A DNA stretch of 64,000 nucleotides from positions 25,797-89,796 of the forward strand of contig JBNJGB010000024.1 of NCBI GenBank assembly GCA_051747385.1, read 5' to 3'. The DNA comes from Myxococcota bacterium. Its GTDB lineage: Bacteria; Myxococcota_A; UBA9042; PHBI01; JACKFB01. Positions 1 through 18,705 of this stretch are shown here, piece after piece. Positions within the stretch are counted from its first letter, which is position 1; each line of letters begins with the position of its first letter. Both the position numbers and the translations under genes were made by a program. The notes under the pieces were generated by a model. It had not been told where the DNA came from. It saw nothing but the letters and a program-made list of their open reading frames with translations, and did no database searches.

Positions 1-1172
1 ACGAAGCGCTCGAACCACATGCCGATGTTGACGAAGATCGACAGGACGAACAGGGCGATGGGGCTGCGGCGGACCTTCTTGAACCACACGAACTGGGGCG
101 AGATGACGTTGCAGCTCACCATGATCCAGTAGGCCCAGGAGTAGTCGCCGAAGGCGCGGTTGACGAAGGCGAACGACTCGTAGGGGTTGCCGGAGTACCA
201 GGCGATGAAGAACTCCATCGCGTAGGCGTAGCCGACCAGCGAGCCGGTCAGGAGGATGATCTTCGCCATGTTCTCGAGGTGCTTGATGGTGATGAGGTGC
301 TCGAGATCGAAGATCTTCCGGATGGGGATGAGCAGCGTCAGCACCATCGCGAAGCCGGAAAAGATGGCGCCCGCGACGAAGTAGGGGGGGAAGATGGTGG
401 TGTGCCAGCCGGGGAGCTGGGCCACCGCGAAGTCGAAGGACACGATGGTGTGCACGGACAGCACGAGCGGCGTCGCGAGGCCGGCGAGGATGAGGTAGGC
501 GATCTCGTAGTGCTGCCAGTGCCGGTTGGAGCCGCGCCAGCCCAGGGAGAAGATGCCGTAGGCGATCTTCCGGGCCCGCGTCCTGGCGCGGTCGCGCATC
601 GTGGCGAGGTCGGGGATCAGGCCGACGTACCAGAACAGCAGCGAGACGGTGAAGTAGGTGGACACCGCGAAGACGTCCCAGAGCAGCGGGCTCCGGAACT
701 GGGGCCACATGCCCATCTGGTTGGGGATGGGGAACATGTAGTAGGCGACCCAGATACGGCCGACGTGGATGCCGGGGAAGAGACCCGCGCACATGACGGC
801 GAAGATGGTCATCGCCTCTGCCGAGCGGTTGATCGACGTCCGCCACTTCTGCCGGAACAGAAAGAGGATGGCGGAGATGAGCGTCCCGGCGTGGCCGATG
901 CCGACCCACCAGACGAAGTTGACGATGGCCCAGCCCCAGCCGACGGGGTTGTTCAGGCCCCAGACGCCGATGCCCTCCCAGATGAGCCACGCCACGCTGG
1001 CGCCCAGGACGCCCAGCAGGGACAGGCTCGCCAGGAAGACGATCCACCACTTCCGCCAGTCGGTGCGCTCCATCGGGGAGGCCACCGCGTCGGTCAGGTC
1101 CTTGAAGTTGTCCTTCCCGAGGACGAGCGGCGTGCGTCCGGAGACCGGATCCAGGTCGTAGTTCACCGACAT
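1..1172 (-). CDS. actC: ACIII subunit ActC (NrfD/PsrC-like polytopic quinol-interacting membrane subunit); C-terminus lies beyond the window start
   Basis: Not in the ORF track because it is truncated at the window edge. Minus-strand translation from the ATG at 1172 gives [53 protein letters not shown]..., a highly hydrophobic NrfD-type protein. The start is 4 nt downstream of the actB stop. Confidence 0.75.
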
Positions 1173-1176
1173 CTCG

Positions 1177-4100
1177 CTACACCAGTTCCGGGTTGGGGTT
1201 GCGGAGCTTCGCCAGGTACGAGGTCCGTGGCTTGACGTTCAACTCGCTCATCATCACGTAGTCGCGAGGCTGCTTCTTGGCGCGGGAGACGCGGCTGTCC
1301 GGGTCCGCCACGTCGCCGAAGACGATGGCGCCGGTCGGGCACGTCTGCTGGCAGGCGGTCTGGATGGCGCCGTCCTCCACCACGCCGTCGCCGTCGACCT
1401 TCGCGTCGATCTGCGCCTGGTTGATGCGCTGCACGCAGTACGTGCACTTCTCCATCACACCCCGGAACCGGACGGTGACGTCCGGGTTCTTCTGCATCTG
1501 GTGCAGCGGGTGGACGTCCTGGTTGAAGTTGAAGAAATTGAAGCGCCGGACCTTGAACGGGCAGTTGTTGGCGCAGTACCGCGTGCCGATGCACCGGTTG
1601 TAGGCCATGTCGTTGAGCCCGTCCGGGCTGTGGGTCGTCGCCGCCACCGGGCAGACGGTCTCGCAGGGCGCGTTCTCGCACTGCATGCAGGGGACCGGCT
1701 GGACGACGGCGTCGGGCTGGTCCGGGTCGTCGCCCACGTAGTAGCGGTCGATGCGGATCCAGTGCATCTCGCGGCCCTCGAGCACCCGCTCCTTGCCCAC
1801 GACCGGGATATTGTTCTCGGAGTTGCAGGCCACCGTGCAGGCGTTGCAGCCGATGCAGGCGTTGAGATCGATGCTCATGCCCCACTGCTGCTTGCCGGTG
1901 AGCGCAGGCTCCTCGAAGGGCGAGCGGATCATCTCCGGCTCGAGGATCTCCCCGTCCTCGACGAACTTCGGGTGCTCCCGGTACTCGGCGAGGGTGGCCT
2001 CCCGGGCCATGGGGCGCTTGTCGTACCCGAAGCCCGGCTCCAGCGTGTCGTGGTGCTGGGTGGTCGCGAGCGTGTAGGTGCCGGCAGCCTTCGTCACGCT
2101 GGCGCCACTCGCGAACCACTGCGCTCCGGTCGTGCGGAGCGTGTAGGTGTCGAAGCCGCAGTCGGCGGCGACGACGCCCAGGCTCTTCCGGCCGTAGCCG
2201 AGGGGGAGCACGACCGTGTCCTCGGCCACGCCCGGCGTGGGCCAGGCCGGGAGCTCGAGGCTGCGCCCGCCGTGGGAGACGGTGAGCATGTCCCCGGCGG
2301 TCACGCCGAGCCTGCCCGCCGTCTTCGGGGCGATGAGGGCGGCGTTGTCCCAGGTGAGCTTGGTGATGGGGTCCGGGATCTCCTGGAGCCAGCCGTTGTT
2401 GGCGAAGCGGCCGTCGAAGATCGTGGGATCCAGGATGAAGTCGATCTCGAAGCCCTCGGCGTCGCCGGCGTCGCCAGGGACGGCGCCCGCCAGGCCCTGA
2501 TAGGTCGGTGACGGGCCGGCCTCGCGGGCGGGCAGGTCGGCGACGCCGCGGTGGAGCCAGCGGCGCCAGTTCTCGTCCGACAGGGCCCCGTCGGTGGCGT
2601 CCTGCCAGAAGCCCTTCACCAGGTCGTGGCCCGTGAGCCACTTGCCCTCGACGATGCGCGCCGCGAGCTCGAGGATGCTCGACGTCTTGTGGAGCGGGGC
2701 GATGAGGGGCTGGACGATGGAGACGGTGCCGTCGGCGGCGCGGAGATCGCCCCACGACTCCAGGTAGTGGCTCGTCGGCAGGTGCCAGTGGGCGACCCGC
2801 GCCGTCTCGTCGCGGTGGGTGCCGGCGTGGAACACGGCCTCGGCACGGGAGAGCTTGTCCCCGAGCTCCAGGTCGGCCGGCGCCGTGTAGGCGGGGTTCG
2901 CGCCCAGGACGATCACCGTGTCGCAGTCGCCGGTGTCGAGCGCCTCGGCCAGCTCCGCCACGGAGTGGAGCTCCGGGAGGTCGTCCTCCGTGTACCAGTG
3001 GACGTGCTTCCCGTCGGCGCCGATCATGGTGTTGACCATGTGGCCGAGCGCGTGGACCCACGCGGGCTGACGCTCGCCGACGACCACCACGGAGCGGCCC
3101 CGGTTGTCCAGCAGGTCCTTCGCGATGGCCTTGACGTGCTCCGTGCCGCGAGGGTGGGCGTCGAAGGTCGCGTCGCCGAGCTTGCCCGCGGCGCCCGGAG
3201 CGTTCATCCCGTGGCCGTCCAGCAGCTCGGAGGCCAGGGCTTGGAGGAAGTCGCCCACCCGCGTTCCCTTCACGGCGAGGCGGTGGTCCGCCATGGCGGC
3301 CGTGACCGAGAACATCGGCCCGACCGCGTACAGGCGGTTCATCTCGTCCTTCGGGCCCTCGACCCGGCGGCCGTCGGAGAAATGCCGGGCCGCGGCGACC
3401 GCGTCCCCCTCGGTGTGGAGGAAGTCGCTGTCCAGGGAGACGACGACCTTCGCGCCCTCCAGGTCGTAGCGCGCGGCGGCCCTGTCACCGGCGGCGAGGG
3501 CGGCGCCGGCGCGCGCGTTGGCGGGCCAGGCCGGGTCCGAGACGACGATGCGGACCTGCGGGAAGGCCTCCTTGAAGGAGGAGAGCAGGCCCCGGAAGGT
3601 CGGCGAGACCACCGACTCCACCACGAGGGCCATGGAGGCGCAGTCGTTGTCGCGGGCGGCGGCCAGAGTCTCGTCGAACGCGGCCCAGGCCTTCTTCCAG
3701 GTGGTCTGCTGCTCGCCGTGGTACGGCTTCGTCGACCGCTCGGGGTCGTACAGCCCCAGGATCGACGCCTGCGCGTACGTGCTCGCGGCGCCGAGGGAGC
3801 CCGGATGCTCAGGGTTGCCCTCGATCTTGGTGGGCCGGCCGTCCTGGCTCTCGACCACCAGGGCCTGCACCGCGGCGCCGAGCTGGAAGGCCGTCGCGTA
3901 GAAGTTCGGGCGACCGGGGATGCGGTCCTCCGGACGCCTCGCGAACGGCATGATGTGCTCGGCCGGCTTCCGCACGCACCCTGCGATGCCGGTCCCCGCG
4001 AGGGCGGCGCTCGCGCCCATCAGCCCCATGAACTTGCGGCGGCTGACCCCGTCCACCTCCAGCTCGGCGGCGTCGGGCGTAAACTCCGGGGCGGGCGGCG

Positions 4101-4182
4101 CCGAGGGGCCGGGCGGCGAGGCCAGCTCCTCCAGGCTACGCCACTGTCGCCTGGTCTTCTTGGTGTCGCTCATCGGTGGCAC
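1177..4182 (-). CDS. actB: ACIII subunit ActB: molybdopterin-oxidoreductase-like domain fused to a 4Fe-4S ferredoxin domain, with a Tat signal
   Basis: 1001 aa. Twin-arginine motif [19 protein letters not shown]. Four Cys clusters: [46 protein letters not shown] and CTYCVQRI. The gene order with actA and actC is typical of ACIII. Confidence 0.85.
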
Positions 4183-4817
4183 CCCGAGCAGTGTTCAGGA
4201 GGGTTCACCGCGCGGGTCCGGTTCGGGTCCTGCGCCGGGTCGTAGTCGGCGGTGGCCGGATCCCACTCCATGTCGGTGACCTGGTCCAACGGCCGGAGGT
4301 TGGGCTCCGGATCCCGGTGGCAGTCCAGGCACCAGCTCATGGACAGCGGCTTCTGGAGGGTCACGACCTTCATCTGGTCGATGCGTCCGTGACACGACGA
4401 GCAGCCGACGCCCGCGGCCACGTGGACGCTGTGGTCGAAGTAGGCGTAGTCCGGCACCTGGTGGACGCGCACCCATGGCACGGGCTCTCCCGTCTCCCAG
4501 GACTCGCGGACCGGGGCCAGCTTCGGGCTCTCCGCGCGCACCTGCGTGTGGCAGTTCATGCACGTGGCGGTCGGCGGGATGGCCGCCTTCGCCGCCACCT
4601 CGACGGTGTTGTGGCAGTAGCGGCAGTCCATGCCCAGGTCGCCGGCGTGCAGCGCGTGGCTGAAGGGGACCGGCTGCTCCGGCCGATAGCCCACGTCGGT
4701 GTACCAGGGCGAGAACCAGTACCACACCGCCCCGACCACGCCGACCAGGACCAGCGGCGCGCCGACGCCGATGGCGGCGGGAATCTTGTTCGTCCAGCGG
4801 GGAAAGATGGCCGCCAC
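4170..4817 (-). CDS. actA: ACIII subunit ActA, membrane-anchored pentaheme cytochrome c
   Basis: 215 aa with an N-terminal TM helix and five CxxCH motifs (CRYCH, CMNCH, CSSCH, CLDCH, CSGCH). It overlaps the actB start by 13 nt. Confidence 0.85.
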   Translation of the reverse strand: MAAIFPRWTNKIPAAIGVGAPLVLVGVVGAVWYWFSPWYTDVGYRPEQPVPFSHALHAGDLGMDCRYCHNTVEVAAKAAIPPTATCMNCHTQVRAESPKLAPVRESWETGEPVPWVRVHQVPDYAYFDHSVHVAAGVGCSSCHGRIDQMKVVTLQKPLSMSWCLDCHRDPEPNLRPLDQVTDMEWDPATADYDPAQDPNRTRAVNPPEHCSGCHR

Positions 4818-5162
4818 GTCAATCCACCTTCGTCAACGGTTCCGTGGTTCGCAGCGTGCCGCCTGAGGCGACTGCCGGGCACTCGGACCCGGCGCTGGGA
4901 GGGCCGGATTTCGACCCCCCGGGGCGATATCGGGCGCGGACGGTACCAGCACGGTCGCCGGTAGGCAATAGCTCGATCGGGCCCTGTGGGCGACCCCGTC
5001 GGGCGTGCTGCATGTCGTTGGAACTATTCGTGTTCATGTGCTCTTCGCGAGCCTCGTGTGAGCCGCCCCGGAGCACCCTGTGCCGGGTGGGGGAGTGCCA
5101 CGGGGACATGGATCATTCGGAGGGGGCGGTGAGACTCCCATCCCCGCAGGGATCCCTGCCGG

Positions 5163-5846
5163 TCACAGGCGTCCCTCCTCGCCGGCCTCGCGCAGGACGT
5201 GCTGGGCGCGGTGGAACATCTCGTCGACGCCGTCGTCCGTGGACGAGTAGTAGCCGCGGATCCGGCCCAGGTCGTCCACGAGCACCAGCCTGGTGGTGTG
5301 GGCGATGTCGTAGACGTTCGCGTCGATCGGCTTCTTCTCGCCCATGGCCGTCCCGAATCCGTCGACCACGAGCGCCCGGATGTCTTCCTCGGAGCCCGTG
5401 AGGAAGTGCCACCGGTCGAAGTCCACGTCGTACTTCTGCGCGTACTCCCGCAGGACCTCCGGGCGATCGGTCTCGGGGTCGACGGTGACGCTGACCTGCT
5501 CCACCGGGACGCCCGCGCGCTCCACGCGCTCCGCCAGGTCGGCCATGGCGCCGGTGACCATGGGGCACGTGGTGGTGCAGGTCGTGAAGATGAAGCTGGC
5601 CACCCAGACGTCGCCCTCCAGCCCGTCGAGCCCGAAGGCGTCGCCGTCCTGGTCGACCAGCTCGAACTCCGGGACCTCTCCGAGCACCGGCGGCGGGTCC
5701 GGCACCTGGCGGAACAGGGGGCGGGACAGGGTGATGGCCAGGATCCCGAAGACGGTGCCCCACAGCCACGGGTGCTTGCGCAGGGAGCGCTGGATGGGGC
5801 CTCCGCGGTACGCCATGTCGTCCTGCCGAGCGGGCGCGTCGCTCAT
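5163..5846 (-). CDS. SCO1/SenC family copper chaperone (thioredoxin-like; cytochrome oxidase CuA assembly)
   Basis: CTTTCP (CxxxC) motif and an N-terminal TM anchor. The true start, MSDAPARQ at 5846, overlaps the permease stop as ATGA; the longer track ORF 5163..6608 is a frame run-on. Confidence 0.85.
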   Translation of the reverse strand: MSDAPARQDDMAYRGGPIQRSLRKHPWLWGTVFGILAITLSRPLFRQVPDPPPVLGEVPEFELVDQDGDAFGLDGLEGDVWVASFIFTTCTTTCPMVTGAMADLAERVERAGVPVEQVSVTVDPETDRPEVLREYAQKYDVDFDRWHFLTGSEEDIRALVVDGFGTAMGEKKPIDANVYDIAHTTRLVLVDDLGRIRGYYSSTDDGVDEMFHRAQHVLREAGEEGRL

Positions 5847-6703
5847 CGTCCGCTCCTCCCGTGCCGGCCGGAGACGAGGACGGCGAGGCCGCCGGCGGCG
5901 ACCGCGAAGCCGAGCAGGGCGAGCAGCGCCGTCCCGGGCCCGGCGACCGAGGCCGGGGCGACGCCGCCGTGCAGCGCGTGGCGCACCCCGTCGACCATCC
6001 AGGTCATGGGGTTCGCGGCCATCACGGCGTCCATCCAGCCCCCCTGGGGCGGGAACATGGCGCCGGAGACCATCCACAGCGGCAGGAGCAGCACGGCCAT
6101 GATGGCGTGGTAGCCGTGGGTGGAGCCCACGACCCAGGCCAGGCTGAAGCCCAGGCCGACCAGCCCGACGCAGCCCGTGACGAGCGCCGCCAGCAGGGGC
6201 AGCCAGGCGACGTCGCTCAGGGCGTAGCCCGCCAGCGGAGCGGCCAGCAGGCAGAGCAGCGCCTGGACCAGGGCCACCGTGGTCACGCCGGCGGTCTTGC
6301 CGGCCACCAGGGCGGCGCGGGACGCCGGTCCCACCAGGATCTGCTGCAGGAAGCCGTGCTGGCGATCCTCGATGACGGCCATGGTCGCGAAGACCGTGGT
6401 GAAGAGCACCACCATCACCAGGATCCCGGGATAGGACCAAGTGAGGTAGTCGACGCCGTCCAGGCCGGGGATCCGGAAGACCCCCGACATCCCGGCGCCC
6501 AGCAGCGCCCAGAAGATGAGCGGCTGGAGCACGACGCCGATCCAGCGGGAGCGCTCGCGGAGGAGGCGCAGCATGTCGCGGCGCCACAGCGCGCTGATCA
6601 CGCCCCACTCGACGGCGGCGGCCGAGGGACGCGCGCGCTCCTCGGCGGCGGCATCGGCCGCGTCGGGCCGGGGGAGGGTGTGCGCGGAGGAGGACGTGCT
6701 CAC
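5843..6703 (-). CDS. ABC-2 type transporter permease
   Basis: 286 aa with six predicted TM segments. It shows the ABC-2 family pattern and is start/stop coupled to the upstream ATPase and downstream SCO1. Confidence 0.75.
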   Translation of the reverse strand: MSTSSSAHTLPRPDAADAAAEERARPSAAAVEWGVISALWRRDMLRLLRERSRWIGVVLQPLIFWALLGAGMSGVFRIPGLDGVDYLTWSYPGILVMVVLFTTVFATMAVIEDRQHGFLQQILVGPASRAALVAGKTAGVTTVALVQALLCLLAAPLAGYALSDVAWLPLLAALVTGCVGLVGLGFSLAWVVGSTHGYHAIMAVLLLPLWMVSGAMFPPQGGWMDAVMAANPMTWMVDGVRHALHGGVAPASVAGPGTALLALLGFAVAAGGLAVLVSGRHGRSGR

Positions 6704-7656
6704 GCCGCCACCTCCACGCTCTCGTCCGCGTCCAGGGTGTTCCCCGTCCTCTCCAGGAAGACGTCGCCCAGGCCGGGGCGGCGGACGCTCACCGCGTTCA
6801 GGCGGCCGGGGGGCAGGGCCTCGACGATGCGCACCACGACCTCGTGGCCCCGCTCGCAGGTGACGTGCACCTCGCGGCCGTCCACGTGCGGGGACAGGCC
6901 GAGGTGCTCCTCGACGGCGGCGGCCAGCGCCTCGGGATCGTCGCCCTCGAGGACGACGCGATCTCCGCGGAGGTTCGACTTCAGGTCCTCGGGCGTCCCC
7001 TCCGCGACGACCCGGCCGCGGTCCAGCACCACGAGGCGGTCGCAGCGCTCGGCCTCGGCCGGGCGGTGCGTCGTCACCAACACGCCGGTGCCCGCGCGGA
7101 CGGCGAGGTCGGTCACCTGGCGCCAGGTGCGCTGGAACGCCGCCTCGTCGAGACCCGCCGTGGGCTCGTCCAGAAGCAGCAGGCGCGGGCCGTGCATCAT
7201 GGCCCGGGCCAGGTCCAGGCGGCGGCGCATCCCGCCGGAGTAGACCTCGACGGCCTCGCCGGCGCGATCCTCGAGATCCGCGTGGGTCAGGGCGCGCGCG
7301 ACGGCCTCGCGCAGGGCGTGGCCCGACAGGCCCCGCATCCGCCCCGAGAGCTGCAGGTTCTCACGCCCGGTCAGCTTCGCGTCGAGGCTCGGCGCCTGGA
7401 AGACGTACCCGAGGGCCGCGCGGGCCGCCCTGTCGATCCGCTCGAGGGTGCGCTCGAGGAAGCGGATGCTCCCCTCCTGCCGCGGGATCAGCCCGCCCAC
7501 GACGGACAGGAGCGTCGACTTGCCGCTCCCGTTCGGCCCGAGGAGGCCCACGACCTCGCCGGGGCCGACGTGGAGCGACACGCCGTCCAGGACGCGCCGA
7601 TCGCCGAAGCGATGGGCGAGAGCCTCGACCGCGAGCAGGGTGGGGGTGGGGGTCAT
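6700..7656 (-). CDS. ABC transporter ATP-binding protein (ABC-2/NosF-like), 318 aa
   Basis: Walker A GPNGSGKST, signature YSGGMRRR, Walker B LLLLDEPTAGLD. The start MTPTPT at 7656 overlaps the ctaB stop as ATGA; the track ORF 6700..8460 is a run-on. Confidence 0.85.
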   Translation of the reverse strand: MTPTPTLLAVEALAHRFGDRRVLDGVSLHVGPGEVVGLLGPNGSGKSTLLSVVGGLIPRQEGSIRFLERTLERIDRAARAALGYVFQAPSLDAKLTGRENLQLSGRMRGLSGHALREAVARALTHADLEDRAGEAVEVYSGGMRRRLDLARAMMHGPRLLLLDEPTAGLDEAAFQRTWRQVTDLAVRAGTGVLVTTHRPAEAERCDRLVVLDRGRVVAEGTPEDLKSNLRGDRVVLEGDDPEALAAAVEEHLGLSPHVDGREVHVTCERGHEVVVRIVEALPPGRLNAVSVRRPGLGDVFLERTGNTLDADESVEVAA

Positions 7657-8564
7657 GCGAGGAGGAGCCGGTCCAGCACGAACGCGATGGTGAGGAGGGG
7701 GAGATACGCGAGGGACGCGAGGAAGAAGTTGCGGGCCCAGCGGGGACCGGTCTGTGCGCGGAGGCCGGTGAGGCTCCAGGCGAGGAACCCGAGGCCCGAG
7801 CCCAGCGCCACCATCAGGTAGAGGGTGCCGGTCACGCCGAGGGGGGTGAGCAGGAGGCTCACGGGGAGGAGCGCGGTCGTCCAGGCGACCGCCTGGCGCC
7901 GGGCCACCTCGTCGCCGCGGACGATGGGCACGACGCGGATGCCGGCCCGGGCGTAGTCCTTCTTGCGGTACAGGGAGATGGCCAGGAAGTGCGGGAGCTG
8001 CCAGAGCAGAAGGATGCCGAAGAGCACCAGGGCGGGCTCGTCGATGCGGTTCGACGCGGCCGTCCAGCCCATGAGCGGCGGCATGGCGCCGGGCACGGCG
8101 CCGATGATCAGCGCGAGGGGCGTCCGGTACTTGAGCGGGGTGTAGACGGCGACGTAGGAGACCAGGGCGAAGGCGCCGAGGGCCGCCGTCAGGAGGTTGG
8201 TGGTCGTGGCGAGCACCCCCAGGGAGACGACGCCGAGCGTCACGCCGAAGACGAGGGCATTCCGGGGATGCATCCGCCCGGCGGCCACCGGGCGCCGCTT
8301 CGTGCGGGCCATGCGCCGATCGGGCTCGCGCTCCCACCACATGTTCAGGGCGTTGGCGGAGCCCACGGCCATGGCCGTCCCGAGGAGGGCGCCGATGAGG
8401 CCGACCCAGCCGGTCACCTCCGGAGCCAGCCAGAGGCCGGCCGCCGTCATCAGAAGGCACATCCGGGTGATGGACGGCTTGGTGAGGGCCGCGTAGTCGC
8501 CGACGACCTGGCGGAGAGAGCGGGGCGCGGCGGGCGCCGACGCCGTGTGGGGGGCCTGGCTCAA
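7653..8564 (-). CDS. ctaB: Protoheme IX farnesyltransferase (heme O synthase)
   Basis: UbiA-family polytopic protein with the typical LTKPSITRM...NMWWEREPD...VPGAMPPLMGW motifs. The start is uncertain: a TTG at 8564 overlaps the upstream stop as TTGA, and an AGGGGG Shine-Dalgarno sits 7 nt upstream. There is no in-frame ATG before the conserved N-terminus. Confidence 0.75.
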   Translation of the reverse strand: MSQAPHTASAPAAPRSLRQVVGDYAALTKPSITRMCLLMTAAGLWLAPEVTGWVGLIGALLGTAMAVGSANALNMWWEREPDRRMARTKRRPVAAGRMHPRNALVFGVTLGVVSLGVLATTTNLLTAALGAFALVSYVAVYTPLKYRTPLALIIGAVPGAMPPLMGWTAASNRIDEPALVLFGILLLWQLPHFLAISLYRKKDYARAGIRVVPIVRGDEVARRQAVAWTTALLPVSLLLTPLGVTGTLYLMVALGSGLGFLAWSLTGLRAQTGPRWARNFFLASLAYLPLLTIAFVLDRLLLA

Positions 8565-9019
8565 AGGATGACCCCCTGCTGGCCGGTGGTGCAGTACTGG
8601 ATGAGGGCCCGGTAGGCGTTCGTGCACGCCTTCTTGTTGGCGCGGGTCACGTCGTGCTCCTCGCACTTGTGATAGGTCCACTGCGCCCGCGCCGTCTCCG
8701 TGTCCCCGAGGCCGTCGCAGACCTCGCTGCGGTCCCGGGCGGCGAGGCAGTGCTCCATGGCCATGGGCACCGCGTGGTCGCAGAGGGTCTTCATCGCCTC
8801 GCAGCGACCGTTCCAGTCCAGCACCGCGGCCACGCATCCATCCGCGTCGAGTCGCACGCCCATCTCGTCGAACTCGGCCATGCTCTGCTGGATGTGCCGT
8901 TCGGAGGCGCGGTAGTTCCGGAAGGCGAGGACGCCCAACACGATCGCCAACACGAAAACGGTGCCGATCACCACGATCGCACCCCTGGCGGACCTCTCCT
9001 GTTGGTTGTCCTTCCCCAT
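8561..9019 (-). CDS. Hypothetical membrane-anchored Cys/His/Met-rich protein (152 aa)
   Basis: N-terminal TM helix (AIVVIGTVFVLAIVLGVLAF) followed by a soluble domain with 8 Cys, including CDHAVPMAMEHC. It is co-directional with and translationally coupled to ctaB. Confidence 0.5.
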   Translation of the reverse strand: MGKDNQQERSARGAIVVIGTVFVLAIVLGVLAFRNYRASERHIQQSMAEFDEMGVRLDADGCVAAVLDWNGRCEAMKTLCDHAVPMAMEHCLAARDRSEVCDGLGDTETARAQWTYHKCEEHDVTRANKKACTNAYRALIQYCTTGQQGVIL

Positions 9020-10332: not shown

Positions 10333-10408
10333 TGGCGTCCCCAGAGGGAATCGAACCCTCGTTACCGGCTTGAAAGGCCAGCGTCCTGGGCCACTAGACG
10401 ATGGGGAC
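10333..10408 (-). tRNA. tRNA-Glu (anticodon TTC), CCA encoded
   Basis: Reverse complement is GTCCCCATCGTCTAGTGGCCCAGGACGCTGGCCTTTCAAGCCGGTAACGAGGGTTCGATTCCCTCTGGGGACGCCA. This is near-identical in architecture to canonical bacterial tRNA-Glu, with anticodon loop CTTTCAA. Confidence 0.85.
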
Positions 10409-10425: not shown

Positions 10426-10498
10426 TGAGCCGAGCGGGGGTCGAACCCGCGACCATTGGATTAAAAGTCCAGTGCTCTACCAGCTGAGCTATCGGCTC
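10426..10498 (-). tRNA. tRNA-Lys (anticodon TTT)
   Basis: Reverse complement is GAGCCGATAGCTCAGCTGGTAGAGCACTGGACTTTTAATCCAATGGTCGCGGGTTCGACCCCCGCTCGGCTCA. It folds as a cloverleaf with a GAGCCGA/TCGGCTC acceptor stem and anticodon loop CTTTTAA. Confidence 0.85.
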
Positions 10499-10536: not shown

Positions 10537-11694
10537 TCAAGCCGTGCCCGTCGGAGCCTCGCGGCGGGCGCGCATCATCGCGATGAAGGGATCGAAGAGG
10601 TAGTGCGCGTCGTGGGGCCCCGGGCTCGCCTCGGGGTGATACTGGACGCTGTAGCACAGACGGGCCTCCGAGGCGAAGCCCGCCACGGTGTCGTCGTTCA
10701 GGTTCAGGTGCGTCACCCGCGCGCCCTCGGGGAGCGAGCCCGCGCGTACGGCGAAGCCGTGGTTCTGGCTCGTGATCTCGACCTTGTGGCTGTCCTCGTG
10801 GCGCACCGGGTGGTTCGCCCCGTGGTGGCCGAACTTCAGCTTGTAGGTGTCCGCGCCCATGGCCAGGGCCAGGATCTGGTGGCCGAGGCAGATGCCGAAC
10901 AACGGCACCTTCCCCACGAGCCCGGCCACCTCCTCGCGGGCGCCCGCCACGGCGGCCGGATCCCCGGGGCCGTTGGACAGGAAGACCCCGTCCGGCTCCA
11001 TGGCGAGGACCTCCTCTGCGGGCGTGTCCGCCGGGACGACCGTGACCTCGCAGCCCCGCTCGAGCAGGTGGCGGAGGATGTTGTTCTTCACGCCGAAGTC
11101 GTAGGCGACCACGCGGTACGGCCGCTCGGGCTGCGGGAAGGCCTTCGCGTCCGACGGGTCGAGGTGCTGCGGTCGCTCGATCCAGCAGTAGGGGCCCGGG
11201 GTGGTCACCTCGCGCACCAGGTCGCGCCCCACCAGCCCGGGGACGCCCGCCGCGATGGCCCGCGCCTCGTCGTCGCTCGGGGCGGGGCTGAGGATCACGC
11301 CCGGCTGGGCGCCGGCCTCGCGGATGTGGCGCACCAGCGCGCGGGTGTCCACCTCCGTGATGCCCACGACGTCGTGCTCGACCAGGTAGGAGTGGAGATC
11401 CTGCGTGCCCCGGTAGTTCGAGACCACCGGGCTCACGGCGCGGACGATCAGACCCGCGGCGAAGACGCGGCGAGACTCGGGATCGTGCGGGTTGACCCCG
11501 TAGTTGCCGATCTCCGGATAGGTCATCGTCACGATCTGCCCGGCGTAGGACGGATCCGTGAGGATCTCCTGGTAGCCGGTCATGGCGGTGTTGAAGACGA
11601 CCTCGCCGGCCGCCTGCCCTCGCGCTCCGAGGGCGCGCCCCTCGAAGATGGTGCCGTCCGCCAGGGCGACGACCGCCCGCTCCCGCTCGCTCAT
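10537..11694 (-). CDS. carA: Carbamoyl-phosphate synthase small (glutamine amidotransferase) subunit
   Basis: 385 aa. CPSase small-chain N-domain plus a class-I GATase with catalytic FGICLGHQ. Its start overlaps the pyrC' stop as ATGA. Confidence 0.9.
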
Positions 11695-12992
11695 GTCACC
11701 TCCGCGTCGCTCGCACGCCAGATTTCACGGCCGCCTACCAGGGTCCGGACCGCGCGTCCACGGAGAACGCGACCGACGAACGGTGTGTTCCTTCCCCGGC
11801 TCCGCAGGGTGGAGGCGTCGGGGATCCAGGTGGTGCGCGGATCGATCACGGTCAGGTCCGCCCGCGCCCCGGCCGCCACCGAGGTCGCCTCGATGCCCAG
11901 GACCGCCCTCGGCCCGGCCGACAGAAGCTCCACGGCACGCAGCGGGGAGATCACGCCCTCGTCCACCAGCATCAGCACGAGGGAGGCCGTGGTCTCGATG
12001 GCGCTGACGCCCGTGGCGGCCGCGTCGAACTCCCGGGCCTTGTCCTCCGCGTGGTGGGGCTGATGATCGCTGACCACGGCGTCGATGAGCCCCTCCGCCA
12101 GGGCCTGCCGGAGCGCCTCCCGGTGGTGTGCGGCCCGGAGCGGGGGCCGGACGCGCGCGTCGGGATCGTAGTGTTCCAGGGCCTCCACCGTGAGGCTCAG
12201 GTGGTGGCCGGTCACGTCGCAGGTGACGGGCACGCCCCGCTCCCGGGCGGCGCGCAGGGCCGCCAGGCCGTCGGCGGTGCTCAGGCGCTGCAGGTGCAGG
12301 CGCTGGCCTGTCAGCTCCGCCAGGAGCGTGTCCCGGGAGACCCCGATGGCCTCCGCCGCGGCCGGGCTGCCCGGGAGCCCCAGGCGGGTGGAGGCCAGGC
12401 CCTCGTCGCAGAGCCCCTCCAGGGTCGGCTCGGTCGGCGAGATGAACACGGGGATGCCGAAGCCGCCGGCGTACTCCAGGAGGCGCCGCATGAGGCGCGC
12501 GCTCCGCAGCGGGTGCTCGCCCTGGCTCACCGCCACGCAGCCGGCCTCCTTCAGCTCGCCGATCGGGGCCAGGGTCTGGTCCCCCAGGCCGGCCGTCGCC
12601 GCGCCCACCGGCAGCAGGCGCGCGCCCTCGGCGGTCTCGGAGCGCTCGAGGATCTGGCGGACCACCGCCTCGCGATCCGTCACGGGCCGGGTGTCCGGGG
12701 TCGTGCACACCGCCGTGTATCCTCCGGCGGCCGCGGCCCTCAGGCCCGTGTGGACGTCCTCCTTGAACTCGAAGCCCGGCTCTCGGAGGGCGCAGCGCAG
12801 GTCCACGAGGCCCGGGACGAGCCAGCAGCCCTCCAGGGACTCGACGCGATCGCAGGGCTGCGGGGAGACGTCGCCGTCGCCGGGCAGGGCCACGCCGGTG
12901 ATCCGATCGCCCTCGACGATGACCGTGCCCGGGGCGTCCGTGCCCTCCACGGGGTCGAGGATGCGGGCGTCGTTCAGGACCAGGCGTGCCAT
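11691..12992 (-). CDS. pyrC: Dihydroorotase-like protein, probably non-catalytic PyrC' type
   Basis: 433 aa amidohydrolase fold with conserved [11 protein letters not shown] and VSDHQPH. The N-terminal metal-binding HxH is replaced: [11 protein letters not shown] where the family has DxHVHLREPG. Confidence 0.8.
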
Positions 12993-12993
12993 G

Positions 12994-13929
12994 TCAGCCC
13001 TCCTCCGCGAGGCCGCCGCCGGCCACCAGGTACAGGACCGCCATCCGCGCGGCCACCCCGTTGGCGACCTGCTCCAGGATGACGTTGTGCTCGCCGTCCG
13101 CCACCTCCGGCGCGATCTCCACGCCGCGGTTCATGGGGCCGGGGTGCATGACGATGGCGCCCGGCTTCGCCAGGGCCAGCCGCTCCCGGGTGAGCCCGAA
13201 GTAGCGGAAGTACTCCCGGTCGTCCGGGAAGAGGTCGTGGCCCATGCGCTCCTTCTGGATGCGGAGCATCATCACCACGTCGGCGCCCTCCAGGGCCGGC
13301 TCGATGCGCCGGTGGGCCGTCACGCCCAGGTCCTCGAGGTGCGGCGGCAGCATGGTCGCGGGACCGGCCACCCGCACCCGGGCGCCCATGGTGGTCAGGC
13401 CGAAGACGTTCGAGCGGGCCACGCGGCTGTGGTCGATGTCGCCGACGATGGCGACCTCCAGGCCGTCCAGCCGCCCGCAGTGCTGGCGCATGGTCATCAT
13501 GTCCAGCAGGGCCTGGGTCGGGTGCTCGTGCCAGCCGTCCCCGGCGTTCACCACGGCCGCGTCGATGTGTCGCGTGAGCAGGCCCGGGACCCCGGCGGAG
13601 GCGTGCCGGACGACCAGGATGTCCGGGGCCATGGCCTGGAGGTTCCGGACCGTGTCGATGAGGGTCTCGCCCTTCGACAGGCTGGACGTCGAGGCGCTGA
13701 AGTTCAGCGTGTCCGCGGACAGCCGCTTCTCGGCGATCTCGAAGCTGCTCCGGGTGCGCGTGGACGACTCCACGAAGAAGTTCACGACGAGCACGCCGCG
13801 GAGCGCGGGCACCTTCTTCATGCGGCGCTCGTTGACGCGCTTGAAGTGCTCGGCCAGGTCCAGGATCGCCGTGAGCGTGTCCCGACCGAGGTCCTCCATC
13901 CCCAGGAGGTGTGGCAGCGTGATGGCCAT
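12994..13929 (-). CDS. pyrB: Aspartate carbamoyltransferase catalytic subunit
   Basis: 311 aa with STRTR, HEHPTQ and HPGP motifs. The start, [10 protein letters not shown] at 13929, overlaps the pyrR stop by 1 nt. Confidence 0.9.
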
Positions 13930-14486
13930 CAGGCCCCCTCCTTCACGTAGAGCGCGATGCGATCCTCCGGGGCGCCCTCCTCGATCAGCTCCACCTTGAC
14001 GGAGTGGCGCCGCTCCGTCGTGATCTGCTGGCCGACGAAGTCCGCCTGGATGGGAAGCTCCCGGTGGCCCCGGTCCACCAGCACGGCGAGCCGGATCCAC
14101 TCGGGCCGGCCGTAGTCGATGACCGCGTCCAGCCCGGCCCGCACCGTGCGCCCCGTGTAGAGGACGTCGTCGACGAGCAGCAGGCGCATGCCCGTGACGT
14201 CGAAGGGCATCTCCGTGCGGCCCACGACGGGCTGGGGCAGGCCGATGAAGACGTCGTCCCGGTACAGGGTGATGTCGATCATCCCCTCGGCCGGCCGGAT
14301 GCCCTCGTCCTCCTCGATGAGATCCACGAGCCTGCGGCCCAGGTGCACCCCGCCGCGGTGGATGCCGACGACGGCGAGGCGTTCGACGCCGCCCGTGGAC
14401 TCGACGATCTCGCGGGCGATGCGCCTCAGCGCCCGTCGAATGCCGTCGGCGTCGAGGAGGATGCGCTGGAGACGAAGCTCGCCCAT
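13929..14486 (-). CDS. pyrR: PyrR bifunctional pyrimidine regulatory protein / uracil phosphoribosyltransferase
   Basis: 185 aa with the PRPP-binding loop [13 protein letters not shown]. Confidence 0.85.
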
Positions 14487-14493
14487 GGTTCCC

Positions 14494-15555
14494 TCAGTCG
14501 AGCCAGGTGAACAGGCGCGAGGTGTCCCGCGCCCACCAGATCACGAACGCGTTGCCCTTGATGTCGTCGAAGTCGACGAAGCCCCAGAAGCGCCCGTCCT
14601 CCGACCGATCCCGGTTGTCGCCCATCACGAGGACGTGATCCTCCGGGACCACCACGTCGGGCCAGGCCTCGTTGGCGCCGGCGTCACCGATGTAGCGGCC
14701 GTGGCTGTCGCGGAGCGGCCAGTCGGGCTGGTTGACGCACCGGGCCCGGCCGAACACGCCGCCGCCGGGCGGGGTGAGCATGTGCTGGGTCGTGTACGTC
14801 GTGCCGTCGACCGTCTCCTCCTGCCGGACGCAGGGGCACTCGGCCACCGCGGCGCCGGCCTCGTCCCGGCCGCTGTCGTACACGGCGCACCGCGCCTCCC
14901 CCAGCACCTCCGTCGGGACCGGTTCGCCGTTGATCCACAGCCGGTTGTCCTCCAGGCGGACCCGGTCGCCGGGCAGCCCGATGACCCGCTTGATGTAGTC
15001 CTCGCCCTTGTGGGCGCCCGCGTGGTCGAACTCGAAGACGATGACGTCGCCGCGATCGGGCTCGTCCCAGTGGACCATGCGGTGGGACGAGAAGGGCACG
15101 TACAGCCCGAAGGCGATCTTGTTGACGAAGAGGCGATCCCCGATGTGCAGGGTCGGCAGCATGGACCCGCTGGGGATGGAGAAGGCCTCGAAGAAGAACG
15201 ACCGGATGAGCAGCGCCAGGCCGACGGCCCAGGCGATGGCCTCCACGTACTCCCGGAGCATGGTCTTGCGCCAGGAGCCGAAGTGCTCCTCGAGGGAGCG
15301 GTCGAGGGCCTCGGTCGCGGTCGCCAGCCTCTCCAGGTCGGCGTCGCGGCGCCCCCTGGCGGGGAGCGCGTCCCGCACGGCGTCCAGGTCCCCCCGCACG
15401 GTCTCCACCGCGGCCGAGCCAGCCCGCGTGCCCTTCTTCCGGACGAGCGTCGTGGCCTCCCGCACCAGCTCGCGGGCCCGGCGAACGAGTCGCTTGCGGG
15501 AGACCCCCTTGGAGCCTCCTCCGCGAGACGACCGGGTGTTGCCAGGCGGAGACAT
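14494..15555 (-). CDS. lepB: Signal peptidase I with a long basic N-terminal extension
   Basis: SGSMLPTL (Ser box), GDRL, KRVIGLPGD and GDNRDRSEDGRFWG boxes. Confidence 0.85.
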   Translation of the reverse strand: MSPPGNTRSSRGGGSKGVSRKRLVRRARELVREATTLVRKKGTRAGSAAVETVRGDLDAVRDALPARGRRDADLERLATATEALDRSLEEHFGSWRKTMLREYVEAIAWAVGLALLIRSFFFEAFSIPSGSMLPTLHIGDRLFVNKIAFGLYVPFSSHRMVHWDEPDRGDVIVFEFDHAGAHKGEDYIKRVIGLPGDRVRLEDNRLWINGEPVPTEVLGEARCAVYDSGRDEAGAAVAECPCVRQEETVDGTTYTTQHMLTPPGGGVFGRARCVNQPDWPLRDSHGRYIGDAGANEAWPDVVVPEDHVLVMGDNRDRSEDGRFWGFVDFDDIKGNAFVIWWARDTSRLFTWLD

Positions 15556-15850: not shown

Positions 15851-17677
<1,827 letters not shown>

Positions 17678-17760
17678 CGGGCTCCTGATGCGTGGGCGCG
17701 GGACGCGCCCGGGGCTCGTGGGGGCGAACGGACAGGGGGTAGAGCGCGCGAGGGCGCGGA

Positions 17761-18705
17761 CTATTCCCCGGCGGCCACCGCGGCGCGGAACCACGGGGCG
17801 CTGCGGGTGAGGCCCTCGCGGAGGCCCACGGCGGGCTCCCAGCCGAGCACCCGGCGGGCGAGGGCGATGTCCGGGCGGCGCACCTTGGGGTCGTCCGCCG
17901 GGAGATCCCGGTGGATCACCTCGCTGGTGCAGCCTCCGAACAGATCGATGCAGATGCGGGCGAGCTCGAGGATGCTGTGCTCGTCCGGGTTGCCCAGGTT
18001 CAGCGGGCCGGCCTGGTCGCCGTGGACCATGCGGACGACGCCCTCGACCAGGTCGTCCACGAAGCAGAAGCTCCGCGACTGGGAGCCGTCCCCGAACACG
18101 GGAAGGGCCCGGCCGCGCAGCACGCGCTCCATGAACGTGGGGACCACGCGGCCGTCGCCGAGGCGCATGCGGGGGCCGTAGGTGTTGAAGATCCGGATGA
18201 TTCGGCCGTCGACGCCGTGGACGCGCCGGTACGTGGAGGTCGCGGCCTCCGCGAAGCGCTTGGCCTCGTCGTAGCAGGCGCGCGGCCCCACGGGGTTCAC
18301 GTGGCCCCAGTAGTCCTCCGGCTGGGGGTGGACCTGGGGATCGCCGTACACCTCGCTCGTGGACGCCAGGAGGAACACGGCGCCCTGGTCGCGTGCCGCC
18401 TCCAGGCAGTGCAGCGTACCCTCGGATCCGGCGCGGAGGGTCTCGACCGCCAGGCGCGCGTAGTCCACCGGGCTGGCGGGAGACGCGAAGTGAAGGATGG
18501 CGTCGGCGGCCGGCGCGTCGCCGAGCCCGTCCACGACGTCGGCCTCCACCAGATCGAAGCGGGGCTCTCGCTCCAGCCCCGCCAGGTTGGCGCGCGCGCC
18601 GGTGGACAGGTCGTCGACCCCGACGACCTCGTGGCCGTCGGCGACGAACCGCTCACAGAGGTGCGAGCCGATGAAGCCCGCGCCGCCGGTGATGATCACC
18701 CGCAT
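17761..18705 (-). CDS. UDP-glucuronate decarboxylase / NAD-dependent sugar epimerase-dehydratase (UXS-like)
   Basis: [12 protein letters not shown] Rossmann motif and the catalytic YDEAKR (YxxxK). Confidence 0.85.

Follow-up and report, generated by a model that had tools for sequence, protein, structure and literature searches.

What is an ATP-driven exporter doing between the genes for a haem O synthase and a copper chaperone? The question is raised by five consecutive minus-strand genes in a 64,000-nucleotide stretch of DNA (hereafter, the window) from a Myxococcota bacterium (contig JBNJGB010000024.1, positions 25,797 to 89,796), in which an ABC ATPase and an ABC-2 permease are encoded between ctaB and SCO1. 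Following the ABC pair through other genomes, we found it next to ctaB and ctaA in bacteria of five or more phyla, and the pair probably acts in the biogenesis of haem-copper oxidases. What it carries is a more tentative matter, which is weighed below together with the alternatives.

A Five-Gene Module with Overlapping Start and Stop Codons

The G+C content of the window is about 72%, and raw lists of open reading frames (ORFs) are for that reason crowded with shadow frames. Genes were called from a plot of third-position G+C content by frame (GC3), the ORF list, and reading of the sequence. The module spans positions 5163-9019 and consists, in order of transcription, of the following genes.

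8561-9019, minus strand: membrane-anchored helical protein with eight cysteines (8-Cys protein); 152 aa, ATG start, no match in Pfam or NCBIfam
7653-8564, minus strand: ctaB, haem O synthase; 303 aa, TTG start overlapping the stop codon of the 8-Cys gene (TTGA)
6700-7656, minus strand: ABC ATPase, DrrA/ABCA-like, with a C-terminal accessory domain; 318 aa, ATG start overlapping the ctaB stop codon
5843-6703, minus strand: ABC-2 (type V) permease with six transmembrane (TM) helices; 286 aa, GTG start overlapping the ATPase stop codon
5163-5846, minus strand: SCO1/SenC copper chaperone or thiol-disulfide protein; 227 aa, TM anchor, ATG start overlapping the permease stop codon

GC3 in the called frames is 0.93-0.98, which supports coding, and each of the four junctions is a 4-nt overlap of start and stop codons: TTGA at 8564-8561, ATGA at 7656-7653, GTGA at 6703-6700, and ATGA at 5846-5843. 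An earlier reading made from the sequence alone (the sequence-only reading) had named the same five genes with the same coordinates, and the GC3 plot, the sequence, and profile searches bear it out exactly. It had also seen all four overlaps and given three of them correctly; the third, which it read as ATGA, is GTGA with a GTG start. CtaB scores 286.6 bits with the equivalog model TIGR01473 (cut-off 210.3) and 209.7 bits with PF01040. SCO1 matches PF02630 with 105 bits and has both the C90xxxC94 motif (C90TTTC94) and His183.

Linkage of the ABC Pair to ctaB and ctaA across Genomes

One-genome-per-species GTDB contigs were scanned for two permease peptides, IEDR[QHA]xGFLQ and PLWx[VLI]SGA[ML]F. 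At least 592 loci were found, and the counts given here rest on the best 80, whose six-frame ORFs were searched with the window proteins before gene positions were counted. Flank of 2 kb or more was available at 68 loci, of which 45 have ctaB directly upstream of the ATPase gene on the same strand; two more, L024 and L043, in which merged ORFs had hidden the linkage, bring the count to 47/70. Three Acidobacteriaceae loci have ctaA instead of ctaB directly upstream of the ATPase, and 16 or more loci carry ctaA upstream of ctaB, the CtaA calls scoring over the PF02628 threshold. For distant loci, CtaB was confirmed by scores above the TIGR01473 cut-off. The CtaB-ATPase junction overlaps or is no longer than 30 nt at 35 of 49 loci, an approximate figure that depends on predicted start codons.

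A neighbor-joining tree was built from 83 permeases, with E. coli CcmB and YadH as the root. Almost all of its subclades contain linked loci: Myxococcota, Bradymonadia, Silvanigrellaceae/Bdellovibrionales, Vicinamibacteria, Terriglobia, Elusimicrobiota, and Woeseiaceae. Linked loci span at least five phyla (Myxococcota, Bdellovibrionota, Acidobacteriota, and Elusimicrobiota, plus Woeseiaceae). The sequence-only reading had proposed looking for conservation of the linkage in Myxococcota; the outcome is strongly positive there and reaches well past that phylum. Its view that the ABC pair is tied to oxidase biogenesis, and is no passenger in the operon, is supported by the ctaB counts. The module recurs gene for gene in relatives, and its arrangement far exceeds what chance would give.

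The gene order of the window module is also that of metagenomic relatives for which Pfam annotation was precomputed. In the closest relatives the order is Sua5 (divergent), Cys-rich protein, CtaA, CtaB, ABC ATPase, ABC-2 permease, SCO1, cytochrome c, and ActABCDEF, the last being subunits of alternative complex III (ACIII). In five loci (L004, L005, L090, L091, and L001), ctaA follows the Cys-rich gene and precedes ctaB, and a gene for a monohaem cytochrome c separates SCO1 from actA. The window is without those two genes: there the stop codon of the Cys-rich gene overlaps the ctaB start, and a 345-nt gap precedes actA.

Other layouts occur as well. In a Rhodospirillaceae metagenome-assembled genome (L049, 4735-6874), ctaB (TIGR01473, 255 bits) and a DUF420 gene are convergent to the ABC pair and follow it immediately; its alphaproteobacterial clade otherwise appears unlinked, and L071 also has a DUF420 gene about 2 kb off. 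The rearranged locus L002 (8001-10802), beside rlmL, runs permease, overlapping SCO1, and then ABC ATPase, and has no ctaB. ORFs that seemed to be shared neighbors in clades without cta linkage were rejected as alternate-frame shadows of the permease.

Family and Fold of the ABC Pair

The ATPase matches PF00005 with 116 bits and has intact motifs: Walker A at G40-S47 (GPNGSGKS), signature SGGMRRR at 140, Walker B LLLLDEP at 159, and an H-loop TTH at 195-197. Its best NCBIfam model is drrA (TIGR01188), at 215.4 bits against a cut-off of 312.45. The permease scores 74.4 bits with PF01061 (ABC2_membrane; cut-off 26.9) and 157.6 bits with drrB (TIGR01247), for which the cut-off is 223.05. Both DrrAB scores are under the curated cut-offs and leave the pair outside that family as curated, and the ATPase motifs, together with the six-TM permease and its fold, place it among the ABC-2, or type V, exporters. 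The PDB sequences closest to the ATPase are the nucleotide-binding domains (NBDs) of ABCA7, ABCA4, and ABCA1, and 4yer; ABCA proteins are lipid transporters. When the AlphaFold2 (AF2) model of the permease (pLDDT 93.7) was compared with the PDB using Foldseek, KpsM ranked first (TM-score 0.73 on the target), followed by ABCG25, ABCH-9C, and TarG, with NosY at rank 18; the Foldseek probability was 1.00 for KpsM, TarG, ABCG25, and NosY. The solved fold relatives KpsM, TarG, ABCG, and ABCH carry lipid-linked or lipidic cargo.

For direct comparison we used E. coli CcmA/CcmB and YadG/YadH, NosF/NosY from nosRZDFYLX on pSymA of Sinorhizobium meliloti, and DrrAB-like pairs of Halopiger and Nonomuraea. 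In phmmer searches the ATPase matched DrrA-like proteins with 187-189 bits, NosF with 129, YadG with 105, and CcmA with 60; the permease matched DrrB-like proteins with 141 bits, YadH with 22.5, and CcmB with 9.1, and gave no match with S. meliloti NosY (-5.4 bits). The resemblance to NosF/NosY claimed in the sequence-only reading thus comes down to the general ABC-2 fold, and kinship with NosFY was rejected: NosY has no detectable sequence similarity to the permease, and NosF is more distant than the DrrA-like ATPases. Kinship with CcmAB was likewise rejected, as E. coli CcmA/CcmB share only a generic coupling-helix motif.

The permease subfamily is marked by the motifs IEDRQxGFLQ (residues 111-120), AW190, [Y/F]198-H199, and PLW210xxSGAMFP. 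The window permease carries every subfamily mark, namely both peptides, W65, W190, [Y/F]198-H199, W210, and adjacency to ctaB. W190, H199, and W210 are present in 82-83 of the 83 subfamily permeases and missing in E. coli YadH and CcmB. In a secondary-structure map of the AF2 model, H199 and W190 fall at the cytoplasmic ends of TM5 and TM4, respectively. The pair belongs to a subfamily of its own within the DrrAB-like type V (ABC-2) exporters.

Paralogs outside the subfamily served as a control. Among the sequences covered, the nearest permease homologs there belong to haloarchaeal plasmid pairs (Halopiger and Halobaculum, 38-40% identity) and to Nonomuraea (32%). These pairs adjoin a TetR regulator or unrelated genes, not ctaB, and their permeases lack W65, W190, [Y/F]198-H199, and W210. 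Conversely, no ABC pair is found at the ctaB loci of Thermomicrobium, haloarchaeon DL31, or Nonomuraea, and on the Nonomuraea chromosome no ABC genes lie near ctaB or ctaA, the best permease homolog being encoded elsewhere. The record used as this actinomycete test, NZ_LT559118.1 (L086/L093), is the 11.85-Mb chromosome of Nonomuraea gerenzanensis filed as "plasmid I" and is almost unannotated. Because the paralogs are unlinked and these ctaB loci are free of ABC genes, the association belongs to this subfamily and is general neither to ABC-2 transporters nor to every ctaB gene. The sequence-only reading had held that clustering with an unrelated exporter family, combined with lost synteny in relatives, would speak against it. 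The pair does cluster with a drug-named, DrrAB-like family, yet the objection falls because synteny with ctaB is kept in relatives.

Recurrent Partners and the 8-Cys Protein

By the position counts, SCO1 comes directly after the permease at 17/75 loci, and ACIII follows the module at about nine. When all ORFs of the 80 loci were clustered against one another, two more recurrent neighbors emerged. A gene for DUF420/CtaM (PF04238, 134-156 bits) lies directly after the permease or SCO1 at 35/80 loci (examples are L037 10672-11181, L065 10770-11216, and L010 11334-11792) belonging to Myxococcota, Acidobacteriota, Elusimicrobiota, Woeseiaceae, and others; the window has no DUF420 gene. CtaM is required for the aa3 and caa3 oxidases in Staphylococcus aureus and Bacillus subtilis, and a 2022 review presents it as a protein of Bacillota with limited distribution (PMC9145763). 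The loci described here widen its range from Bacillota to Myxococcota, Acidobacteriota, Elusimicrobiota, and others. A protein of about 270 aa with a C-terminal CarboxypepD_reg-like beta-sandwich domain is encoded upstream of ctaA, or between SCO1 and ctaB, at 16 loci (for example, L037 6293-7057, L065 6209-7066, and L030 789-1859), and it may be a further periplasmic assembly factor. Every other recurrent neighbor of the ABC pair with a known or assigned function, namely ctaA, SCO1, and DUF420, is therefore an oxidase-assembly gene; the CarboxypepD_reg-like protein has no assigned function.

The 8-Cys protein that heads the window module has one N-terminal TM segment (residues ~15-33) followed by a helical domain. 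Its cysteines, at positions 62, 73, 80, 91, 101, 119, 132, and 143, form three CX10C pairs plus two more, and three helices each bear one CX10C pair. No Pfam or NCBIfam model matched it. Homologs occupy the same first position of the module at 10 loci, all ACIII-linked; loci with homologs are L004, L005, L007, L008, L009, L021, L027, L051, L074, L090, and L091. All its occurrences among the loci examined are in the ACIII-linked clade, and none of them is accompanied by DUF420. An exhaustive profile search of 1.84 billion proteins returned 205 representatives of the family, and conservation of the eight cysteines is 99% or higher across the 134 full-length members, in which hardly anything else is conserved. 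The AF2 model is all-helical (pLDDT 80), and Foldseek found nothing in the PDB below E = 1. A likeness to the copper-storage proteins Csp3/Ccsp was considered and set aside, the weak matches having a probability of ~0.06, which is not evidence. The sequence pattern suggests disulfide-stapled helical hairpins like those of twin-CX9C COX factors in mitochondria; thiolate metal sites are a second possibility.

A Possible Hand-Over of Haem O/A

The explanation that we put first, giving it slightly less than an even chance, is an assembly module with a farnesyl-haem exporter. The five genes would form one co-transcribed, translationally coupled module for an A-type, haem A-containing haem-copper oxidase, in which CtaB would make haem O and SCO1 would serve the copper/thiol chemistry of the CuA subunit. 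The ATPase and permease would build a homodimeric type V exporter whose gene order has co-evolved with ctaB and ctaA. UbiA-type prenyltransferases have cytoplasm-facing active sites, the haem sites of subunit I are nearer the outer side, and a porphyrin head with its two propionates is unlikely to flip by itself. For CtaA of B. subtilis, too, Niwa and colleagues reportedly located the haem sites towards the outer side in 2018. The exporter would take farnesyl-tailed, amphipathic haem O, or possibly haem A, from the cytoplasmic leaflet, the presumed release site of CtaB, and ATP would drive the haem towards the outer half of the membrane, in which CtaA and the haem pockets of subunit I would receive it. 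Such an exporter would be a haem flippase or hand-over device with a part like that of CydDC for cytochrome bd or of CcmAB for c-type cytochromes, and CydDC, which has been described as a haem transporter for a respiratory oxidase, provides a precedent (bioRxiv 10.1101/2022.04.07.487047).

The reading of the cargo as haem, which we favor, draws on synteny and fold. Copper or a haem precursor had been suggested as cargo in the sequence-only reading; the haem part is the one that our data favor, the company of ctaB or ctaA being near-constant, and the copper part fares worse, given the SCO1 counts. Farnesylated haem is preferred over copper because the linkage runs to CtaB/CtaA, because SCO1 is only an occasional neighbor, and because the fold class carries lipidic or lipid-linked molecules away from the inner leaflet. 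Assignment of haem O/A as the cargo is nonetheless tentative and may prove wrong. His199, Trp190, Trp65, and Trp210 are candidate haem-contact residues, and in the model H199 and W190 would sit where a type V exporter first meets a leaflet-borne substrate; both points are suggestive only.

Several observations weigh against haem O/A hand-over. Synteny is association and does not name a cargo, and conserved His and Trp residues are no proof of haem binding. By the name-giving models the closest family is DrrAB, with drug or lipid export. No ctaA was found within the 64-kb window, and two clades of the subfamily, Rhodospirillales with Magnetococcales and Verrucomicrobiota, are unlinked to cta genes, their neighbors being lineage-specific housekeeping genes. 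The exporter is absent from B. subtilis, Paracoccus, Rhodobacter, and mitochondria and, because these systems are well studied and do without it, cannot be a universal requirement. For such systems the view in the literature is that haem O is channeled directly within a CtaA-CtaB complex (PMC9145763).

Two alternatives give the pair a different purpose. The pair might dispose of surplus or mislocalized haem O/A, or haem B, and so protect the membrane rather than supply the oxidase. The same synteny and fold evidence would fit such disposal as fits hand-over; dispensability in many aerobes suits an accessory, protective role, and DrrAB-like efflux systems offer a likeness. Coupling inside a biosynthetic and assembly operon and the company of CtaM and SCO1 fit a productive role better, however, and no regulator of the stress-efflux type, such as the TetR beside the haloarchaeal paralog, is present, which makes disposal improbable in our judgment. 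The pair might instead be a DrrAB-like drug, lipid, or polymer pump that was captured in the cta operon and has no part in oxidase assembly. That drrA and drrB are the best NCBIfam models, that the Joint Genome Institute (JGI) labels some homologs "daunorubicin resistance", and that two clades hold the pair in unrelated neighborhoods would all agree with capture, as would the treatment of mycobacterial Rv1457c-Rv1458c, co-transcribed with Rv1456c, as a drug pump (PMC7761784, PMC8829022). We give capture a low probability: gene order with ctaB, overlapping codons included, would be very unlikely to persist in five or more phyla if selection did not maintain it, both the drrA and the drrB score lie under the family cut-offs, and the true DrrAB-like neighbors have neither the subfamily residues nor the linkage.

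Two further alternatives change the cargo. A copper route, in which the exporter together with SCO1 and perhaps the 8-Cys protein supplies or shuttles copper to CuA/CuB on the outer face, could run through a copper exporter or through a NosDFY-like mechanical device for a periplasmic chaperone. The overlap of SCO1 with the permease stop codon in the window, its place directly after the permease at other loci, and the coupling of permease to SCO1 without ctaB in L002 speak for it; NosY is a recognizable structural relative (TM-score ~0.6), and a periplasm-facing Cys-rich protein heads the operon in the ACIII-linked clade. Linkage to SCO1 is far weaker than linkage to ctaB/ctaA, though, and the lack of sequence similarity to NosY and the nearness of the ATPase to DrrA-like proteins rather than NosF point the same way. 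The periplasmic loops of the permease are short, a partner gene resembling nosD or nosL is missing, type V exporters are not known to pump metal ions, and the known routes of copper export to oxidases in bacteria use P1B-ATPases. Copper supply therefore seems distinctly improbable to us. Export of haem B, in the manner of CcmAB, for the c-haems of ACIII and a caa3 oxidase is very improbable. ACIII with multihaem ActA does follow directly, modules of relatives also hold monohaem cytochrome c genes, a few homologs have faint precomputed CcmB (PF03379) matches, and hhalign weakly aligns the permease to E. coli CcmB over the coupling-helix motif. The hhalign probability is just 16%, however; the ATPase is remote from CcmA by phmmer and under the TIGR01189 cut-off; ccmC, ccmD, and ccmE are not nearby; and at most linked loci (Acidobacteriota, Elusimicrobiota, and the majority of Myxococcota) the cluster contains only ctaA, ctaB, and ctaM, with no genes for cytochrome c or ACIII.

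Hand-over of haem O/A thus remains the reading that we prefer. CtaA "possibly" hands haem A to apo-subunit I, according to the 2022 review, and further factors are expected (PMC9145763). For the route of haem O/A from the synthases into subunit I, an exporter held near ctaB/ctaA in at least five phyla is a testable candidate, and the invariant His and Trp residues are obvious targets for mutagenesis. In its fullest form the proposal would have three parts: the exporter would be the first machine dedicated to flipping or handing over farnesyl-haem (haem O/A) for haem-copper oxidases, at an unassigned step that leads from CtaB on the inner side to CtaA/subunit I on the outer; Rv1457c-Rv1458c would be its analog; and the 8-Cys protein, whose twin CX10C hairpins are reminiscent of the twin-CX9C COX factors, would be a new periplasmic assembly factor. 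That all three hold jointly is unlikely.

Genomic Setting of the Module

The surroundings of the module in the window are as follows.

3-1172, minus strand: actC, NrfD-like, running off the window; ACIII
1177-4182, minus strand: actB, molybdopterin-like plus 4Fe-4S; ACIII
4170-4817, minus strand: actA, multihaem cytochrome c; ACIII
4818-5162, minus strand: non-coding spacer of 345 nt between SCO1 and actA, with a GC3 coding signal in no frame
Upstream of the module, divergent: Sua5/TsaC, by profile match
10336-10408 and 10426-10498, minus strand: two tRNA genes (Rfam RF00005, 63 and 72 bits), between Sua5 and the carA block
10537-14486: carA-pyrC-like-pyrB-pyrR block
14494-15555: lepB
15851-17794: lepA

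The module had been placed directly upstream of an ACIII operon in the sequence-only reading, and actA does begin after the spacer. The order actA-actB-actC is as expected for ACIII, and relatives continue with ActD, ActE, and ActF. A consensus scan of the spacer found no terminator-like and no sigma-70-like site, and tblastn found no cytochrome c remnant in it. Promoter, terminator, and Rfam scans of the module gave nothing relevant save the two tRNAs upstream.

Comparison with Known Systems

DrrAB and the window pair have a common architecture, a separate NBD protein with a C-terminal accessory domain and a six-TM ABC-2 permease, and the same type V fold; the pair on Halopiger xanaduensis pHALXA01 is the source of matches of 187 and 141 bits to the window ATPase and permease. 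They differ in genomic context, which for DrrAB-like paralogs is TetR-linked or unrelated and for the window subfamily is ctaB, ctaA, SCO1, and ctaM. NosFY resembles the pair in its ABC-2 fold (TM-score ~0.55-0.6 to 7o0y/7znq) and as an ABC system inside a metallo-enzyme maturation operon. It differs in that the window permease has no PF12679 match at E <= 0.01, in the lower NosF score already given, and in that the partners of the window pair are enzymes that modify haem, not a copper enzyme; no nosD, nosL, or nosZ lies near the window pair, and no such cluster recurs in the 80 loci. CcmAB is likewise a haem-related ABC system with a small six-TM permease, and the coupling-helix peptides can be set side by side (IEDRQHGFLQQ in the window, DDLQDGSLEQL in CcmB). 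The window ATPase, however, reaches 121.8 bits with TIGR01189 against a cut-off of 131.6, the permease has no PF03379 match, the hhalign comparison with CcmB is as weak as stated above, and the pair is found with other genomic partners and without ccmCDE.

CydDC offers a functional analogy only, as an ABC transporter dedicated to the haem supply of one terminal oxidase class. It is a heterodimer of fused transmembrane domain and NBD with the type IV exporter fold; the TIGR02857 match is confined to the NBD of the window ATPase, and the membrane domains are not homologous. Likened by description only, Rv1458c-Rv1457c-Rv1456c of Mycobacterium tuberculosis comprises an ABC ATPase and an ABC-2 permease co-transcribed with a third membrane protein. 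That third protein, Rv1456c, we take on indirect support to be a CtaA/Cox15 homolog. The three genes are conserved in Corynebacterineae and in all mycobacteria, and their disruption causes a growth defect (PMC7761784); KEGG-based work placed Rv1456c in oxidative phosphorylation (PMC4745158), and the operon is treated in the literature as a drug-efflux pump (PMC7761784, PMC8829022) or a glycolipid flippase. If the operon is analogous, a drug-efflux system would be reinterpreted as one of respiratory-chain biogenesis.

Full-text literature searches found no paper that gives this ABC pair a role in oxidase assembly, and neither the 2022 review (PMC9145763) nor the Caldithrix genome paper (PMC5317091) mentions an ABC transporter in an oxidase-assembly cluster. 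COX operon diagrams in a 2014 paper bear an "ABC transporter/permease" symbol, without discussion (PMC4013037), and a 2026 synteny supplement lists K01990 and PF01061 beside the genes for haem A synthase (HAS) and haem O synthase (HOS), for example in Gloeobacter violaceus, without comment in the text. Parts of the window arrangement have counterparts elsewhere: Caldithrix abyssi has ctaB directly upstream of ACIII, with SCO1 also inside the cluster (PMC5317091), and S. aureus has CtaM beside ctaB (PMC9145763). What is new is a subfamily of DrrAB-like ABC-2 exporters that is committed to the cta assembly cluster.

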